64,000 nt of DNA from a virus: IMG/VR virus record IMGVR_UViG_3300046557_000512, positions 16,302 to 80,301 of that record. One strand, 5' to 3'. Shown here piece after piece: positions 9,629-63,723 of this stretch. The translations under genes and the position numbers were made by a program. Within the stretch, counting starts at the first letter, position 1, and the number at the start of each line of letters is the position of its first letter. The notes under the pieces are model-generated. The model searched no databases. It was not told the DNA's origin and saw nothing but the letters and a program-made list of their open reading frames with translations.

Positions 9629-10364
9629 GTGGTTTCCGGGAGTTGTTGCGGTAGCGCTCGATGACCTCGCGCACGAGGCCGGAGCGGACGATGTCGTCGA
9701 GGGTGAACTCGAACACCGAGACCGACTTCACGCCGCGCATGCGGTCGATCGCGTCAGTGAACCCGTCGATGCCCTGGTATTCACCGAAGCGCTGATGGGC
9801 GTCGCCGTCGACCACGATCTTGCTGTGCTCGCCGATGCGAGTGAGAAACATCTCCATCTCGCGCGGCGTCATGTTCTGCGCCTCGTCGAGCAGCACGAAG
9901 GCGTTCTCGAAGGTGTGGCCCTGTAAGAATGGCACCGGTGCGATCTCGATACGGCCGTTGGCGATATACGCCTCGACGGTTGCGGCGCCGAGGATCTTCT
10001 CGAAGATCTTGCGCACAGGCAGGAAGTAGGGAGCGAACTTCTCCTCCATCGTGCCCTTGAGGAAACCCATCGGGGTTCCAGCCTCGACGTTCGGCCGAGT
10101 TACGATCACTTGGTCGACCACCTTATCGCGCAGCGCGAGAGCAGCCAGGCCGGCGGCACAATGGGTCTTGCCCGTGCCTGCCGGCCCCTTCAGGAATGTC
10201 AGCTGACTGGCGTTGATCGTGGCGATGCAGCGACGCTGTGCGTCGTTCTTCGGCTTGAGCTCGCCGATACCGCGCGCCCGCGGCCCAGGTGCTATTAGCG
10301 CCTCGGTGGGTAAAGCGACGGGAGAGTGACGATCGCGGCGGGTTGGTTTCGAATCACGCTTCAT
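9564..10364 (-). CDS. phoH: PhoH-like ATPase
   Basis: GPAGTGKT, IVTRP, GFLKG, LDEAQN, IVVDGD, DIVRSGLV. Start at MKRDSK (SD AAGGAG). Confidence 0.93.
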   Translation of the reverse strand: MKRDSKPTRRDRHSPVALPTEALIAPGPRARGIGELKPKNDAQRRCIATINASQLTFLKGPAGTGKTHCAAGLAALALRDKVVDQVIVTRPNVEAGTPMGFLKGTMEEKFAPYFLPVRKIFEKILGAATVEAYIANGRIEIAPVPFLQGHTFENAFVLLDEAQNMTPREMEMFLTRIGEHSKIVVDGDAHQRFGEYQGIDGFTDAIDRMRGVKSVSVFEFTLDDIVRSGLVREVIERYRNNSRKPHDNDDHIGSGAAPYFLGIPCQ

Positions 10365-48267: not shown

Positions 48268-48707
48268 AGCGTCTCAAGGCATGGGCTGTGCGCGCGCGCG
48301 CCAACCAGGAAAGGCGCTTGACGGCCGCCATGCTCCGCCACAACGCGCCGCTGCGCAACAGCTACCTGACGACCATCCAGGAGCGCAATGCCGCGATCGC
48401 CGAATTGGCCACCTTGCGTCAGCGATTGGCGTCGACCGAGGCTGCGTTCGATCTCATGAACCGGTCTTTCGAGAGCCTGCACGCGAGCGCCCAGCAGCTC
48501 ATCGCTCTGCGCGATGAAACCATGCGGCTTTTGCGCTTCTTCGACAGTGAGAACACCCGCGCGCCGGGTGTGATCCAGATCGTGGTGCCAGATAGCGAAG
48601 TGCGCTCTCGAATGCAGCTGCGTTGGATGGCCTTTGTCCGCGCTGCAAACGGCTTGCCGCCCTTCGACGGCGCCGAGCAACTCAGCCCCTCAAGAAGGAC
48701 TCATTGA
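48264..48707 (+). CDS. Hypothetical coiled-coil protein
   Basis: ATGA/TGATG coupling on both sides. Confidence 0.6.
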   Translation: MKRLKAWAVRARANQERRLTAAMLRHNAPLRNSYLTTIQERNAAIAELATLRQRLASTEAAFDLMNRSFESLHASAQQLIALRDETMRLLRFFDSENTRAPGVIQIVVPDSEVRSRMQLRWMAFVRAANGLPPFDGAEQLSPSRRTH

Positions 48708-57521: not shown

Positions 57522-57674
57522 ATGGCAATGAGCAAATTCCTCCTCGTAGAGGACACCCAGACCAAGCGCCCGGTGCGCATGGCGAAGCCGACGGGCCGCA
57601 AGGTCAATCCGGCTGAGGCGGTCGCTCTCACGCTCGCTCGCTATCCCAACGTGATGGCGCATCTCGCGGAATGA
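57522..57674 (+). CDS. Short antitoxin of the Doc toxin
   Basis: 50 aa, SD AGGAGG, C-terminal RYPNVMAHLAE helix, ATGA overlap with doc. Confidence 0.7.
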   Translation: MAMSKFLLVEDTQTKRPVRMAKPTGRKVNPAEAVALTLARYPNVMAHLAE

Positions 57675-58138
57675 GCCAAGAGCCTGAGTGGATCTCGGTT
57701 GAAGACCTGATCGGCTTCAACCAACAGATCGTCGCGTCCTCGACGCCACCCGAGCCCCACTTAATCGTGATCTCAGGAGCGATCGAGGCGGCTCAGGCTT
57801 CGCCCGTCAACCACTACCACTATGACGGCGTGGAAGACATCGTCGCGCTCGCAGCCCAGCTATGCCTGGCGGTGTCGCGCGCCCACGCATTCCAGCAGGG
57901 CAACAAGCGCACTGGCTTCGTCGCGATGCACGAGTTCCTGCGCATCAACGGCTACATGCTCGATGTGCCCGACACGACGGCGTTCTCGGATCTCATGATC
58001 CGGCTGCTCGAGGACGACGGCCTGCTCCCGCTGTTCATGCATCTGATCGACGAGCACCTGGTCGATGTCGAGGACGACGATGTCGACTTCAGCGAGGTTA
58101 TCGTCGTGCCCTTCGGCACGCTGGGCGATCAGGACTAG
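57671..58138 (+). CDS. doc: Fic/Doc family toxin
   Basis: HAFQQGNKRTG, FLRINGY. Confidence 0.82.
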   Translation: MSQEPEWISVEDLIGFNQQIVASSTPPEPHLIVISGAIEAAQASPVNHYHYDGVEDIVALAAQLCLAVSRAHAFQQGNKRTGFVAMHEFLRINGYMLDVPDTTAFSDLMIRLLEDDGLLPLFMHLIDEHLVDVEDDDVDFSEVIVVPFGTLGDQD

Positions 58139-58501: not shown

Positions 58502-59371
58502 TCAAGCGGTCACGGTCGCGTCGGTCGCTTGCGTCATGTAGCGATTGCGGAACAGCTGGTAGAACCCATGATCGCGGTTGATGCTGATACCCCCGCGCGC
58601 ATGCTCTACCGTGCAGATGGTAGCGAGGCCCAGCACGTCGAGCACGTTGCGCACCTGGCTGCTCTGCGTGTCACGTCCACCGGACATGAACTTGTGCTGA
58701 TAGTCGCGCAAGTAAGCTGCTAGCTCTGCGTCGTTCACCAGCTTGTCAAAGCTAGCGTTCGACAGAAACGCGCGGTTGACCTTGTTACCGATCGGTGACG
58801 CGTCACGGTCTGCGACAGCGATAGAACAAGCGATGAACGCTTGCGTCACACGCTGAAAGCGCGATGCGTTACCGCAGATGAACGCACACACCTCAGTCAC
58901 CTTGTCGAGGCCCTTAGCGGTGAACTCGTTATTCGACATCACCTTGCGACGAATGACGTTCACCGGTTCGACGTTGAGGGCGAGGAAGCCGCGAGCGACA
59001 GCAACCGCGTTAGCGAGCATGTTGCGCTTTGCTTTAGCGTAGCTGGATGCGCTGTCATTGAGATCGAGACCCCGCGACTCTTCGAACGTGTCACGCGCCG
59101 CAAAGGTAGCGCGAATGTCGTCGATCATGGTGTCCACCGTGCCTTGATCGAACGAAAGCGCGATATCGCGCAACGACTGCATTGCGTCGCTATCGGTAAC
59201 GTCAATCACCGGTGTGTCGCTGTCGGTCGGTGCGAGCGCTTCAAGCACCGCATTGACGTCGACTTGATCGGTCGCGGTCAGCGTGTCGATCGTGATGGTT
59301 TCGAGGGCGACATTGGTTTCGTCGGTCACGTTGACGACAACCGGGGCTTGCTTGCGAGTGCGCTTAGTCAT
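58502..59371 (-). CDS. Hypothetical phage protein
   Basis: 289-aa ORF, SD GAAAGG, own promoter and terminator. Confidence 0.75.
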   Translation of the reverse strand: MTKRTRKQAPVVVNVTDETNVALETITIDTLTATDQVDVNAVLEALAPTDSDTPVIDVTDSDAMQSLRDIALSFDQGTVDTMIDDIRATFAARDTFEESRGLDLNDSASSYAKAKRNMLANAVAVARGFLALNVEPVNVIRRKVMSNNEFTAKGLDKVTEVCAFICGNASRFQRVTQAFIACSIAVADRDASPIGNKVNRAFLSNASFDKLVNDAELAAYLRDYQHKFMSGGRDTQSSQVRNVLDVLGLATICTVEHARGGISINRDHGFYQLFRNRYMTQATDATVTA

Positions 59372-59648
59372 GGTGAGAACCTTTCAAGTGTGTGTTACCG
59401 CACCGCTGCGGTGACACCTTTAGAGGACGATTCGCTGTGCGGGGCAAGGGTCAAAATGTCCTGCAATTATAGATATTTCCGGGATAGTTTCGGACCATAT
59501 CAGCGAATCACCTAATCGATTGATCGATTCGTCATGCATATAGAGCGCGCTTCGCTCAATCTGGATGTGTGTTGTTGACTCTGCACCGAATCACTCCTAG
59601 CTAGTGATTCGTCGGTGCAGCGGTGCACCGCTTTTGAAAGGTCTTCAG

Positions 59649-59801
59649 ATGGTCGACTTCTGGTGCATCTTCGCAGTGCTGAGCGCGTTTGCGATGGTCG
59701 TTCTCCTGGTCAAGCTGATCGACATGCGGGACGCGCGCACCATGACGCGCCGGCATCACCGGGTGCGGATCAACAAACTCGCAGATTTCCGCGGTCGGTA
59801 A
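59649..59801 (+). CDS. Small membrane protein
   Basis: MVDFWCIFAVLSAFAMVVLLVK, SD GAAAGG, promoter TTGACT-N17-TAGCTA. Confidence 0.55.
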   Translation: MVDFWCIFAVLSAFAMVVLLVKLIDMRDARTMTRRHHRVRINKLADFRGR

Positions 59802-60294
59802 AACGGTCGCACGCTAGGGCCGCGCGTCCCTGGTGGCGCGCGGTCATGCGCAGCGCCCCGCGCGCTCCCTGGGCATCCCTCGGCCCCGCGCGCGCGCCAC
59901 TGGTCCCATGGATCCCCTAGGCCCCGCGCTGCCCGATCCTTTCGCCGATCCGCGCCATCACCGGGCTAGCCGTATACCGCCACAGCCATAGCCGTTCACA
60001 AAGGCAGCCTTTCGCCGTGGGAGCCCGCGGGCACCGAGCTTGCGCCGATCCATGGGTGCCCTAGGCATGCCATGGCGCGCCACCCGGCACTCTCGCGAAA
60101 AAGGCGGCACCATTGGCACCGCCTCTCCCGTGGTGTGGATGATCGCGCGTATGGCGCGGATTACTTGCCCTTCATGCGACCTCCCTTTCTGCGCGCCCAC
60201 CTGGCCCGCCTTTCCTCTCGATCCACAGCGGGCTCGCCGAACGCGAGATCCATGAAAACGATGGCGCTCGACACGCGGTCACGCTCGCGCCGGC

Positions 60295-60507
60295 TCATTT
60301 CGAGCCAAACCCGCAGCGCAGCTTGAGCTTGCCGGAGATCCGCGGAGCTGATGCGAGCTCGGTCGTGGTGACCACGCCCTGCTCGACCTCGCCACGGATC
60401 GCGCGGTCCCAGTCGCGCTTACGCATGCCGTTGGTCTCTCCCACGCCGACGCGCGAGACTGCTCCCCCGTTGCCCAGGTAAGCTGTGACCAGATCCTTCG
60501 TTCCCAT
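60295..60507 (-). CDS. Small hypothetical protein
   Basis: MGTKDLVTAYLGNGGAV, SD GAGAGG. Confidence 0.6.
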   Translation of the reverse strand: MGTKDLVTAYLGNGGAVSRVGVGETNGMRKRDWDRAIRGEVEQGVVTTTELASAPRISGKLKLRCGFGSK

Positions 60508-60847
60508 GATTGACCTCTCATTCGTGATCAGCACCGCTGCTGACCATTTGAGAGTGCGCGATCGCGCGTAGGCGGTCGGGTGGCGAATGAGAGGGAGCGC
60601 GCTGGCATCGAGAAACGCCTGGTGCCAGCGGACCCCTCGGAAACGCCTGGTGCGCGTGGACCGGGTGCCTGCATGCCATGGACTGCCTCGGGAAGCCTAG
60701 GCTCGCCATGGATCATCGGCGCACAAGACAAAGGCGACCGAGGGAGCCCCGATCGCCTTGTCCCGCACCCAGGGGTTGAAAGGTCCTAAGACACCCTGGC
60801 TACTCGGTTCGTATATCTTGGCGCGCTAGGACCCGGCGCGCAAGTGA

Positions 60848-61027
60848 TTAGCCGACGTCGATCGGCATGATCGTGATTTCGGTGGGGCCATCGGACGCCT
60901 GGAGTTCGGCGAGAATGGGGTCGAGCGCGGTCATCATGGACTCGTCTGTATCGAGCCCCTCGATGCCAACCTCGATCACCGCGGCGAGTGCGACACGCTG
61001 GATGCCGGTGAGTTGGAAGCAAGCCAT
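60848..61027 (-). CDS. Small acidic protein
   Basis: MACFQLTG..., TGATG-coupled. Confidence 0.55.
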   Translation of the reverse strand: MACFQLTGIQRVALAAVIEVGIEGLDTDESMMTALDPILAELQASDGPTEITIMPIDVG

Positions 61028-61212
61028 CAGCGCTTGTCCTCGACGACACAGCGGAAGCGCGCGGTCACCCGCGAACCGGGGCCATCGTATAGCCGCGCAT
61101 TCACCGCCTTGGCGATGGCACGCTGACAGTCGGCCGGCGACCGGAAGCTGTCGAGCTGATAGATATTGCCGACGCCATTGATCGTCAGCACCATGACCAG
61201 GATGTGGAGCAT
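61027..61212 (-). CDS. Small hypothetical protein
   Basis: MLHILVMVLTING...F.S.ADC...FRCV, TGATG-coupled. Confidence 0.6.
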   Translation of the reverse strand: MLHILVMVLTINGVGNIYQLDSFRSPADCQRAIAKAVNARLYDGPGSRVTARFRCVVEDKR

Positions 61213-61289
61213 CAGCGCATGTCCTCGATGAAGCACACGCCGGCGGGGATGACCGCCAGCACGAGCATGATGATGCCGATGAAGTCCAT
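61212..61289 (-). CDS. 25-aa single-TM peptide
   Basis: MDFIGIIMLVLAVIPAGVCFIEDMR, SD AAAGGA, coupled to the next gene. Confidence 0.5.
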   Translation of the reverse strand: MDFIGIIMLVLAVIPAGVCFIEDMR

Positions 61290-61898
61290 GTTTCGCGTCC
61301 TTTCGATACCGCGAGCACCGCTGCTCACGAGTATTGAATGCACCGCTGGTGCGCGGAACGCGGGTGGCTTATATATCTGGCACCTCGGGATACCGCGGTT
61401 GCGCCGTGCAACGCCTCGGCGAGCCTAGGGTGCCCATGGGAGTTCGCGTGCCGCGGGGAGCCGTGGGAGTGTTGGCGCGAGAGGGAATGCGCTGGTGTGG
61501 CGGTGCCGCGGGGATAGCGGGAGTTCGTGGGGTCGGCGGCTGGCTCGGGTGCGCGAGAAGCCAATTGACAGAGGCTTGGCGCCCGCCGACCACCCTACCA
61601 TCGGCACGACCCGCTATACCCGCTCTGCCCCTTACGCTCCCCTAGCCTGCACGCTGCCCGTGCTCTCTCATTCTCTAGGTTGCCGCAACCACGGTGCCCT
61701 CTAGCTTAGCGCTCTATACGCTCTCTGCCCCTATGGTTCCTCTATACGTTGAACCACCTGCCCATGCGCTCAGCGCTGCTCCCAGGAGACCGAGGATCCC
61801 TGGTGCCGTGTCTCCTACCCATAGCGCTCCTATAGCGTTCGACAGCATCATCCCTGCCGAGATCAGTGCGAGCTTGGGTGCTAGGGTTGCTATGGTGT

Positions 61899-62219
61899 TC
61901 ATGCTTGCCTTCCCCTCTCGAAGTCCTCTTGCGACTGCCACACCCCTTTGATCCCTTTACGGTTGAGCGATGCCAGTCTGCGTTCTTCCCTGGTGGGTGG
62001 TGGAGCTCCGAGCCTGTTATCGTTGATGTGCTGCCTCAATGCGTCTCTTGCCGCGATCGATCGTTGACGGGCTTGCCGGTGAGTGTCGCATTGCTGGTTA
62101 TGGCGCCATTGATCCTTGCAGATAGGACACGTCCTCCATCCCTCCCCGATCTCGCGTTGGGTTTCGCGTTCGGCTTTCAGCTCGGTCTTGATGCGCTCAT
62201 AGGTGGCCTGGTCCATCAT
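61899..62219 (-). CDS. Hypothetical protein with CPIC...C..H motif
   Basis: Start MMDQAT, ATGA-coupled. Confidence 0.55.
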   Translation of the reverse strand: MMDQATYERIKTELKAERETQREIGEGWRTCPICKDQWRHNQQCDTHRQARQRSIAARDALRQHINDNRLGAPPPTREERRLASLNRKGIKGVWQSQEDFERGRQA

Positions 62220-62539
62220 GCCTCGAGATTCTTGGGTGGGATGCGTTCGACCAGCCTGAGCTCGCCGTCGATGTTGAGGTAGCGTTCGATCGTGCCATCT
62301 GCGAACACGCCGTAGCCGCTCCACCACTTCCATGCCGTCGGTTCCTCGGGTTCGGTGACCTCTATGGTGTCGATCGCCTCGCCATTCTTGAAGCGCGTGA
62401 TCTTGTGGATCCTGGGTTTGCCCAGCGTGCCTCCTACGAACATGGCGCCGTCGAAGCCTTCGATATGCGGCTTCAGCCAATCGGGCGCTTTCGCCATGTC
62501 GATTCCGGTGAACGGCTTGCTGATCTGCGGAATGGTCAT
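62216..62539 (-). CDS. Hypothetical protein
   Basis: Start MTIPQI, ATGA-coupled. Confidence 0.55.
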   Translation of the reverse strand: MTIPQISKPFTGIDMAKAPDWLKPHIEGFDGAMFVGGTLGKPRIHKITRFKNGEAIDTIEVTEPEEPTAWKWWSGYGVFADGTIERYLNIDGELRLVERIPPKNLEA

Positions 62540-62715
62540 TTGCTTTCCAGTTCCCATCTCAGAGCCTGTGCGGTCACGATCGCGATAGGTCGGTCGCCGC
62601 CAATTTGCTCGCTGCTCGGTTCCAAGTCGATGACGAGGGTCGCCTTGCCGAAGATGTATGTGTGGCCGTTTAGCCTGACCTCGCCGGGGCCGAGGGTGAG
62701 GTTCATCTTCTTCAT
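62536..62715 (-). CDS. 59-aa hypothetical protein
   Basis: Hand translation MKKMNLTLGPGEVRLNGHTYIFG..., ATGA overlaps at both ends. Confidence 0.55.
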   Translation of the reverse strand: MKKMNLTLGPGEVRLNGHTYIFGKATLVIDLEPSSEQIGGDRPIAIVTAQALRWELESK

Positions 62716-62996
62716 GCCGCTGCCTTATTCTCATCGACCCACTTGGTCAGCCATGCGTCATAGGCATCGTGGTCGACCAGGGAGGCGCTCTGTCCTGATC
62801 CGCGCGGGCCGGGCATGAACGCCTCGGGGTGCTCGCACTGGAAGTCCCTGATGCGGTCCCTGTTCCAGAACGTGAAGCCGCCATCGAACGCCGGCGTGTT
62901 GAGCTTGCCGCGATCGATGGCGGCCTGATCCTCAGGGCTGTTGCCGTGCGCACGCGCGTAATTGGCGTAGCGCGGGTTGTCGCCTAGTTCGGTCAC
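62712..62996 (-). CDS. Hypothetical protein
   Basis: NPRYANYARAHG...DHDAYDAWL. Confidence 0.6.
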   Translation of the reverse strand: MTELGDNPRYANYARAHGNSPEDQAAIDRGKLNTPAFDGGFTFWNRDRIRDFQCEHPEAFMPGPRGSGQSASLVDHDAYDAWLTKWVDENKAAA

Positions 62997-62999
62997 GTT

Positions 63000-63221
63000 C
63001 TACTCCTCGTGTTTGGTCCAGCCAGCTTTCGCCGCTGCGCTGTGCGCCTCGATCGCGCGCTCGATTGACTTCTGGGCGTCGCGGAGCTGAGACCATGCGT
63101 ATGATGGGTCGGACAGCTCGCCGAAGCCGTTATAGACGCGGCCGTCGAAATAACTGAGCGCCTGGCTCGCCTTCTCCGTTGCCTCGACGATGATGTTGGT
63201 CTGCTCCTTGGCGATCGTCAT
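63000..63221 (-). CDS. Hypothetical protein
   Basis: Operon-coupled small ORF. Confidence 0.55.
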   Translation of the reverse strand: MTIAKEQTNIIVEATEKASQALSYFDGRVYNGFGELSDPSYAWSQLRDAQKSIERAIEAHSAAAKAGWTKHEE

Positions 63222-63418
63222 CCTCGGTCAATCCTTGCTTGCCGCAGCGTGTCATTGCTGCCTGCCTCTATATGAGCATATGCCTTGGCGGCGTCGAGAA
63301 GCGCTTCCCTGAAGCCGATGTGCGTCAGGTAGCGCAGGGCTGTGTTGGTGGAGACCGGCGTCTTGGTCGCCATGCTGGTGACGAACGCCTCGATCGCCCC
63401 GTCCTCTGCGACGCTCAT
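63218..63418 (-). CDS. Hypothetical protein
   Basis: Operon-coupled small ORF. Confidence 0.55.
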   Translation of the reverse strand: MSVAEDGAIEAFVTSMATKTPVSTNTALRYLTHIGFREALLDAAKAYAHIEAGSNDTLRQARIDRG

Positions 63419-63642
63419 GCCGCGGTGAGGTTCTGGCTATAGGTGGAGACCAGCTCATCCACTTTGTCGTAGCGAATCGTCTCGACGGGCTTGAACTCAT
63501 TTTCGATTTCGCTGACCAGCGCTGCCAGGTCTTTTTCGTTGCCGCGATACGCGTTGCTCTCGACGGTGTGAGCCTCCTGGCCCGCCTCACCGAGGATTGC
63601 GACCATTCCTCTGCCGCGCTCGTTTGCGTAATAAAGCCTCAT
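63415..63642 (-). CDS. Hypothetical protein
   Basis: SD GAAAGG and leader hairpin. Confidence 0.6.
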   Translation of the reverse strand: MRLYYANERGRGMVAILGEAGQEAHTVESNAYRGNEKDLAALVSEIENEFKPVETIRYDKVDELVSTYSQNLTAA

Positions 63643-63723
63643 GCCTTCAACCTTTCACTACGCCAGCACCGCTGCTGACGATTCTACTATGTGTTCGATC
63701 GACGAGGCATGCGGGTGGCATCA

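Follow-up and report, generated by a model that had tools for sequence, protein, structure and literature searches.

The boxB hairpin of phage lambda has a 5-bp stem and a GNRA-like pentaloop, stands alongside boxA, and occurs once per early operon without abutting the Shine-Dalgarno sequence (SD); the Escherichia coli ompA leader and the T7 phi10 stem-loop act by structure alone, with no invariant loop known across unrelated stems; and the early promoters of phage N4, with their 3-nt loop, need a giant virion RNA polymerase. The closest described system, in architecture and genomic setting, to the element considered here is the promoter-early stem-loop (PeSL) cassette of T4-type phages, in which a sigma70-type promoter, a stem-loop, an SD and a start codon stand mostly before ORFan genes in hyperplastic regions (Arbiol et al. 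2010, PMC2839356; Comeau et al. 2014, PMC4122927). In PeSL the stem-loop, a terminator built of G/C tracts, takes a position with respect to the -35 and -10 hexamers that differs among five subclasses, and sequence conservation extends over the entire motif (PMC2839356). Here we describe a family of leader hairpins with covarying stems and a nearly fixed A-GCGG-U apex, found in a 64,000-nucleotide stretch of viral DNA (the window; bases 16302-80301 of the 80,301-bp IMG/VR contig IMGVR_UViG_3300046557_000512, its right edge being the contig end) and in related contigs. The family resembles PeSL in being a repeated, multi-copy cassette of promoter, stem-loop, SD and start codon placed before ORFans in plastic regions, and differs from it in that the hairpin is fixed downstream of the -10 hexamer, the arms covary, the loop is invariant, no U tract follows, and the bearers are siphovirus phage-plasmids. 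TTTT follows one of the five window copies and a terminator scan picks none of them; an intrinsic terminator was ruled out, as no U tract lies behind the hairpins.

The exact 10-mer GCAGCGGTGC occurs five times in the window, at 59400-59409 (-), 59617-59626 (+), 60531-60540 (-), 61315-61324 (-) and 63666-63675 (-), with no further copy anywhere in the 80,301-bp contig; a reversed-pattern control gave one match. Each of these copies forms the apex of a longer inverted repeat whose arm sequences differ from copy to copy, and all five lie on the sense strand of the downstream gene, followed by GAAAGG or GAGAGG and then by an ATG 31-37 nt past the C of CAGCGGTG. Where pairing within the five stems is imperfect, three or four pairs are G-U and one is C-A. 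An initial annotation of this DNA, made from the sequence alone, had listed five covarying leader hairpins before an SD and ATG, each heading a separate small-gene unit, with imperfect pairs that are mostly G-U on the transcribed strand and no further copy in the window, and all of this is borne out by the present analysis, which finds five separate units.

Pattern scans and protein-guided searches recovered the hairpin element from 10 further metagenomic contigs, bringing the family to 59-61 copies in 11 contigs of one SSU5-like lineage of soil phage-plasmids, all of them sense-oriented, divergent pairs included. A first set of 28 sites was collected by a filter that demanded three flanking pairs, and the filter for the second set demanded five. 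Across the 28 sites 96.4% of alignment cells are paired, against 64.5% in shuffles, and across 61 sites (alignment A3) the figure is 96.7% against 59.3%. The larger alignment contains 148 double-change cells (45 in shuffles), with a covariation score of 0.865 that falls to 0.154 in shuffles and to at most 0.16 with slid 3' partners, and six of its seven stem pairs have changed on both sides. The closing A-U pair alone is invariant throughout; the loop is GCGG at all but four sites (three GAGG and one GUGG), the C-G pair beneath the A-U is swapped for A-U, U-A or G-C in ten sites, and there are 23 distinct inner arms. The apex GCA-GCGG-TGC, which the initial annotation had called invariant, thus holds in the window, but across the relatives the invariant core narrows to A-GNGG-U and the two pairs below it covary; its further claim, that the lower stems vary and yet keep pairing, holds across the 61-site alignment.

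Four observations that are independent of the pair filter, and a folding prediction, bear on how real these stems are. In the first set, whose selection disregarded stem positions 4 and 5, these positions pair at 27 and 22 of the 28 sites, and among the leaders of orthologous copies of a 289-amino-acid (289-aa) gene a clean C-G to A-U exchange is found in stems that are otherwise identical. Minimum-free-energy folding yields the hairpin for 27 of 28 leaders, with -7 to -11 kcal/mol for the 18-nt core. A covariance model of the family (R1) scored at least 20 bits at 3 of 64 unrelated GC-rich loci containing the exact 10-mer, compared with all five window copies, so that the presence of the 10-mer does not by itself account for the stems. 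When hairpins immediately ahead of an SD and start codon were scanned for without regard to motif, A-GCGG-T was the commonest apex both in the window genome (5 cases) and in the relative G006 (9 cases). The placement is equally regular: an SD and start codon follow in 28 of 28 sites, the SD beginning 12-27 nt and the start codon 25-37 nt past the C of CAG, with the SD 0-10 nt beyond the hairpin, and the genes so led form operons of small ORFans.

The motif appears to be new. A match to a known Rfam family had been named at the outset as a possible refutation, and no family was matched: Rfam 15 gave 0 matches at the gathering score over the whole window and, between 59300 and 63800, three chance-level matches only (E 1.7-5.2), none of them on a hairpin. 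Literature on a GCGG or AGCGGU loop yielded only tRNA and microRNA contexts. Even without a dedicated reader, then, the family is a well-supported new RNA motif of about 60 copies and six covarying pairs that is not in Rfam. The loop and closing pair, AGCGGU, resemble a short tRNA D-loop, whose counterparts we take to be A14, G15, C16, G18, G19 and U20, and one variant (GCUCU-AGCGGU-AGAGC, contig L354, 9873-9898) resembles a whole D-arm; the likeness may be coincidence.

Judged from the alignments, the hairpin is one part of a putative promoter-leader cassette, a membership that the initial annotation had missed together with the upstream promoter box, while its hairpin family stands. The box GCCACCCGCAT is present at three of the five window copies and at 34 of 59 sites overall, with its CCA 42-44 nt upstream of the apex 10-mer, and a TTG-type hexamer occupies the same position at 15 further sites, as in TTGACT-17-TAGCTA (hairpin 2), TTGACA-17-TAGACA (L354) and CTTGTGCGAATC...CTAGAA (several relatives). 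Intermediate copies, CCGCTTGCATGCC, indicate that the box aligns with the -35 hexamer, CCG substituting for TTG. The box may require an activator or an alternative sigma factor, or may act as an operator. A fuller form of it, GCCACCCGCAT(G/C)CC, was noted across the window, G001, G006, G007 and L354-L363 in place of the -35 hexamer. An A-rich stretch lies 8-16 nt ahead of the C of CAG, and where a TTG-type promoter could be scored, at ten sites, the gap between the end of the best -10 and the first base of the stem has a median of 9 nt (range 5-15). The usual distance from the -10 to +1 being 6-8 nt, transcripts are predicted to start 0-3 nt before the stem. GANTC, the site methylated by CcrM in Alphaproteobacteria, was seen in 15 of 59 cassettes, within the stretch that starts 12 nt ahead of the 5' arm and reaches 3 nt into it, at about ten times the chance frequency; this enrichment hints at methylation-sensitive promoters and a CcrM-bearing host.

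The stems are compensatory, the loop is fixed among genomes that share only 40-60% identity in their core proteins, and the orientation is always sense, which together argue that the element acts as RNA and that its apex is read sequence-specifically. Variable but compensating arms around an invariant, asymmetric centre, in strict sense orientation, likewise point to a folded single strand and not to a duplex operator. The loop and closing pair are fixed from 52 to 62% GC, and in one relative (L363, 9769-9812, +) the leader of the 289-aa gene carries two tandem hairpins, at 9779 and 9797, both with an AGCGGT apex; this suggests a sequence-specific reader rather than bare structure. Tandem hairpins were also noted in the leaders of the same gene in L354 (9850-9900, +) and L355 (3290-3360, +), where the first looks degenerate.

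Our preferred interpretation, to which we give a probability of roughly one half, is that a hairpin at the 5' end of the mRNA is a common tag for post-transcriptional control of accessory-gene messages. Each operon would be driven by a two-hexamer, host-type promoter whose -35 region is either of TTG type (TTGACT, TTGACC) or the GCCACCCGCAT box, and transcription would begin about 0-3 nt before the stem. The mRNA would then start with a hairpin of about 7 bp, made up of five freely covarying pairs, a pair that is usually C-G, the invariant A-U and the GCGG cap, with the SD and start codon 0-10 nt after it. The apex would be read sequence-specifically by one conserved partner, either a phage-plasmid protein or a conserved host machine, and the likely effect would be joint control of the accessory-gene messages through protection of the 5' end, ribosome access at the adjacent SD, or both. 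Were such a dedicated reader to exist, loop and reader would be a new pairing of RNA and protein, and would provide an expression tag that is compact and portable. The initial annotation had proposed an undescribed cis-regulatory RNA element; what we find is an element that is strand-specific, covarying, at a fixed distance and absent from Rfam, whereas its action at the RNA level is something we infer from the comparisons, as we do the reader, the start site and the direction of the effect. The annotation's suggestion that the hairpins lead first-expressed host-takeover genes was not substantiated, the genes being ORFans.

A number of points weigh against this interpretation. The proposed start sites rest on weak, alpha-type -10 hexamers, and a TAGAAT-like, A-rich hexamer abuts some of the stems; with that hexamer as the actual -10, the transcript would begin within the apex and lack the 5' arm. 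For most sites the selection filter demanded several flanking pairs, so that the inner pairs are partly paired by construction, and identical stem alleles recur before unrelated genes, so that there are fewer independent events than sites. At the unbiased stem positions G-U outnumbers A-C by 5 to 2, which favours the sense strand weakly. Finally, the searches identified no candidate RNA-binding protein, and the conserved protein specific to the lineage resembles a winged-helix DNA binder.

That protein is the 289-aa product of the gene at 58502-59371 (-), which is conserved across the lineage, always with a family hairpin upstream, and is the best lineage marker. It has a disordered, basic N-terminus and a C-terminal domain (residues 172-284) with a winged-helix fold in an AlphaFold model (predicted local distance difference test score 80), for which structure comparison returned MarR/ArsR and ORC/Cdc6 winged helices at the modest level of Z 7-7.7. 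On this model the protein could be a regulator or a plasmid initiator, with the DNA box and the RNA equally likely as its target. It had no match in named phages or plasmids and no convincing one in 401 sampled alphaproteobacterial genomes or four named genomes; a scan for close relatives with this protein alone returned nothing, its family profile found no solved relative by sequence, and Foldseek returned nothing at E <= 0.001.

The position of the hairpin would also suit a purely cis-acting 5' stabiliser or insulator that, with no dedicated reader, guards the message against 5'-end-dependent decay and screens the SD from variable sequence on either side. The hairpin is predicted to be stable, at -8 to -11 kcal/mol, and to lie at the very 5' end, it directly precedes the SD in swapped ORFans, for which a leader insensitive to context would help, and the search turned up no reader protein. 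The E. coli ompA leader and the T7 phi10 stem-loop offer a parallel, with a hairpin near the mRNA 5' end, a short leader and an SD, the T7 hairpin being common to several transcripts; an invariant loop on unrelated stems is not known from those leaders. A stem suffices for stabilisation, and the invariant loop and closing pair are not needed for it, unless the fixed loop is required for folding or doubles as the initially transcribed sequence of the promoter. To our knowledge GCGG is not among the known extra-stable tetraloops, and the loop stays fixed in genomes from 52% to 62% GC while every stem pair drifts. In addition, the second of the tandem hairpins in L363 (9779, 9797) cannot be 5'-terminal. 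On balance we consider a reader-free stabiliser unlikely.

On either side of the stem, out to the -10 region and the SD, the alignment contains no conserved column, and hence no boxA-like element. This bears on a nut-like role, in which the nascent hairpin would recruit an N-like factor to RNA polymerase and allow read-through of terminators in or after the unit. The resemblance to lambda nut is real: both are promoter-proximal RNA hairpins of temperate phages, with stems that vary between phages and a sequence-specific, presumably protein-read apex, and here a terminator-like hairpin follows at least one unit and several of the hairpin-led proteins have basic N-termini. The geometry, however, is unlike that of boxB, with at least 7 pairs and a tetraloop closed by A-U (or a hexaloop, AGCGGU) at 61 of 61 sites and no boxA-like conserved flanking element; there are 5-9 sites per genome, each joined to an SD, rather than one or two per early operon, and the units are short and mostly without internal terminators. 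The boxB/nut role offered in the initial annotation was accordingly not sustained, and we hold antitermination to be a distinctly improbable function of the hairpins.

The related phage-plasmids place a different signal in the same slot. Salmonella phage SSU5 (JQ965645.1) carries a fixed palindrome, AAACAAnTTGTTT, between 80.7 and 94.5 kb; it counts 11 copies, against 0 in the control, and most of them separate a -10 from an SD. Rhizobium phage RHph_N1_10 (MN988505.1) has fixed CAGTAAAT...ATTTACTG-like palindromes before several SDs, for example at 48372, 83342, 90966 and 97120. In neither phage does CAGNGGTG exceed the control level. SSU5 is a related phage-plasmid (portal 49% identical), and its palindromes share with our hairpins the position after the -10 and before the SD, a similar multiplicity and clustering in a small-gene region. 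The pattern of conservation is reversed: in SSU5 the arms are invariant and the centre varies, as expected for the operator of a dimeric DNA-binding protein, whereas here the arms covary about an invariant, asymmetric centre. A double-stranded DNA palindromic operator was rejected for this family because its half-sites vary (23 inner-arm alleles) around an invariant centre, the opposite of what SSU5 shows.

Other ways of acting as DNA would be an operator spanning +1 to +20, an extruded promoter hairpin of the N4 kind, or a conserved initially transcribed sequence formed by GCAGCGGTGC itself. The slot shared with the fixed palindromes of SSU5 and RHph_N1_10 is in favour of these, as are the constant distance from the -35 box to the apex, the TAGAAT-like hexamer that abuts some stems, and the winged-helix fold of the conserved lineage protein. 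Dimeric operators keep their half-sites and vary in the centre, which is the reverse of what we observe, and the centre is asymmetric and always sense-oriented. The N4 early promoters are similar in having a small hairpin with conserved apex bases, in several copies, before early genes; here, by contrast, the contig (75% complete by CheckV) contains no giant virion RNA polymerase gene, ordinary -35 and -10 elements lie upstream, and 7-bp stems are short for cruciform extrusion. The single-stranded DNA hairpin promoter that had been put forward for these sites is disfavoured on the same two grounds, the missing polymerase gene and the two-hexamer promoters, and a DNA-level element of any of these kinds seems to us very unlikely.

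A more specific and more tentative proposal, which we put at somewhat below even odds, is that the A-GCGG-U hairpin is the RNA operator of a post-transcriptional regulon, in which one reader would recognise the loop at the 5' end of all accessory-gene messages and switch their stability or translation as a block, or load an antiterminator, and that this RNA signal replaced the DNA operator of the SSU5 type. The same slot, held by a fixed DNA palindrome in the enterobacterial members and by a covarying hairpin here, amounts to a natural experiment on DNA versus RNA reading of the signal. SSU5-type phage-plasmids are widespread, and the family bears on how their accessory or early genes are silenced or switched on.

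Further candidates were discarded. An antisense RNA partner was ruled out, there being no free complement copies of the apex on the gene strand. A sigma54 promoter (the reverse complement of the box), a DnaA box, pairing of the loop with the anti-SD and a CsrA site were dropped, on inspection only, over misfits of orientation, element order or the required GGA. Integron attC sites, imperfect palindromes of 57-141 nt with R''/R' core sites placed 3' of promoterless cassettes and accompanied by an integron integrase, were ruled out by size and placement, with no search aimed at an integrase; the present elements measure 18-26 nt, lie 5' of genes behind promoters of their own, and show no conserved flanking core sites in the alignment.

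The same promoter-hairpin allele is found before unrelated genes in different genomes, and the cassette marks a plastic gene-exchange region of these phage-plasmids. This recurrence, with the position of the cassettes in a hyperplastic ORFan block between conserved modules and the precedent of PeSL (PMC2839356, PMC4122927), would fit an element that is primarily a recombination joint, a PeSL-like exchange point for accessory genes with regulation as a secondary role. Identity between copies is limited to 8-10 nt at the apex and 10-14 nt at the box, and the arms differ, making the cassettes poor substrates for homologous exchange; covariation, for its part, reflects selection on pairing, which recombination does not need. 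A primary role in recombination, though compatible with a regulatory one, is in our view highly improbable.

Within the window the five hairpins differ in their stems and in the units that they lead, and the products of these units had no Pfam or PHROG match, which makes them ORFans. Hairpin 1 (59392-59417, -; 22.9 bits) has arms of 8+8 nt with one C-A mismatch around the apex GCA-GCGG-TGC and leads the 289-aa gene described above, with its SD at 59380-59385 and its ATG at 59371; a TTGACC -35-like hexamer lies upstream at 59449-59454 (-), with no clear -10. Hairpin 2 (59613-59630, +), with cggt/accg arms, heads the divergent open reading frame (ORF) at 59649-59801 (+), of 50 aa and membrane type, behind an SD at 59636-59641. 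The putative promoter of this unit (59575-59603, +), by consensus reading, comprises TTGACT (59575-59580), a 17-nt spacer and TAGCTA (59598-59603), which ends 9 nt ahead of the stem and from which the start site would follow. The 50-aa protein has one predicted membrane helix and an arginine-rich tail.

Hairpin 3 (60525-60546, -; 25.8 bits), with tggtca/tgatca arms and one G-U, leads a 70-aa ORF at 60295-60507 (-) whose SD, GAGAGG, is at 60514-60519. Its class A promoter box, GCCACCCG, is at 60577-60584 (-), and the CCACCCG core begins 43 nt upstream of the apex 10-mer. Hairpin 4 (61309-61330, -; 26.3 bits), with tcgtga/tcgcgg arms and two G-U pairs, leads a 25-aa hydrophobic mini-ORF at 61212-61289, followed by ORFs at 61027-61212 and 60848-61027 (all -), and also has a class A box (GCCACCCG, 61361-61368, -). 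The product of the mini-ORF is a very hydrophobic peptide. A terminator-like 13-bp hairpin with a T-rich tail (60731-60759, -), detected by a consensus scan only, would end unit 4 ahead of the unit 3 promoter. Hairpin 5 (63661-63680, -; 27.7 bits), with cgtca/tggcg arms and one G-U, leads a coupled operon of at least six small ORFs that runs from 63642 down to about 62216, possibly 61899 (-); its class A box is in the full form, GCCACCCGCATGCC (63706-63719, -), and a -10-like stretch, CATAGT/TAGAAT, follows the box ahead of the stem.

The contig that contains the window encodes a portal that shares 49-50% identity with the portals of Salmonella phage SSU5, many enterobacterial phage-plasmids and Rhizobium phages RHph_N1_10, N1_15 and N2_6. 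A tail fibre, a tape-measure protein and a J-like tail-tip protein are the products of its largest ORFs (1737, 1357 and 1218 aa). The portal identity and the tail genes together identify it as a siphovirus-type SSU5-like phage-plasmid. As the cassette region reaches the contig end, further copies may exist. The contig has 62% GC, which points to a host of the hairpin-bearing lineage that is probably alphaproteobacterial, and the sole sequencing run with this DNA is a rhizosphere metagenome.

The window contig and its ten relatives have core genes in common at 40-88% amino-acid identity. In each relative the hairpins lie on one strand, within some 12 kb of small genes that show little conservation; this block runs toward a conserved DNA-metabolism module of helicase, ligase, dCMP deaminase and cytidylate kinase. 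Relative G001 (109 kb, 98% complete) has eight unique copies, of which seven show a CA-GNGG-TG apex. Nine copies, all on the + strand, occur in G006, and seven, all on the - strand, in G007. The other seven relatives (L354, L355, L356, L357, L360, L362 and L363), reached through homologues of the 289-aa protein, have 1-8 copies each. Positions 1-130 and 109300-109429 of G001, the first and last ~130 nt of the contig, are nearly identical and include one cassette; G001 is probably circular or terminally redundant, though IMG/VR classes its ends as linear.

The first scan of IMG/VR DNA for the 10-mer with an SD gave mostly single chance matches, and a scan of genome contigs for the box with the 10-mer gave, among the matches listed, single and apparently chance ones in GC-rich genomes. 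Three IMG/VR contigs of 55-59% GC have one similar cassette each (L042, 1770-1880; L066, 8750-8860; L104, 4470-4580), which consists of TTGACA, 17 nt, TTAAAG, a 10-bp hairpin with the GCAGCGGTGC apex, GAAAGG and ATG. From these cassettes, the hairpin motif may reach past the SSU5-like lineage.

Two minor features of the window lie in or beside the cassette region. At 57522-58138 (+) a 155-aa protein of the Fic/Doc family (Pfam E 5.5e-9) is encoded, overlapped by a 50-aa ORF just before it, and by sequence the two look like a toxin-antitoxin pair of the Phd/Doc type. Between 59860 and 61470 the long intergenic stretches that separate the units are rich in CCATGG, CCTAGG and CCNNGG words.

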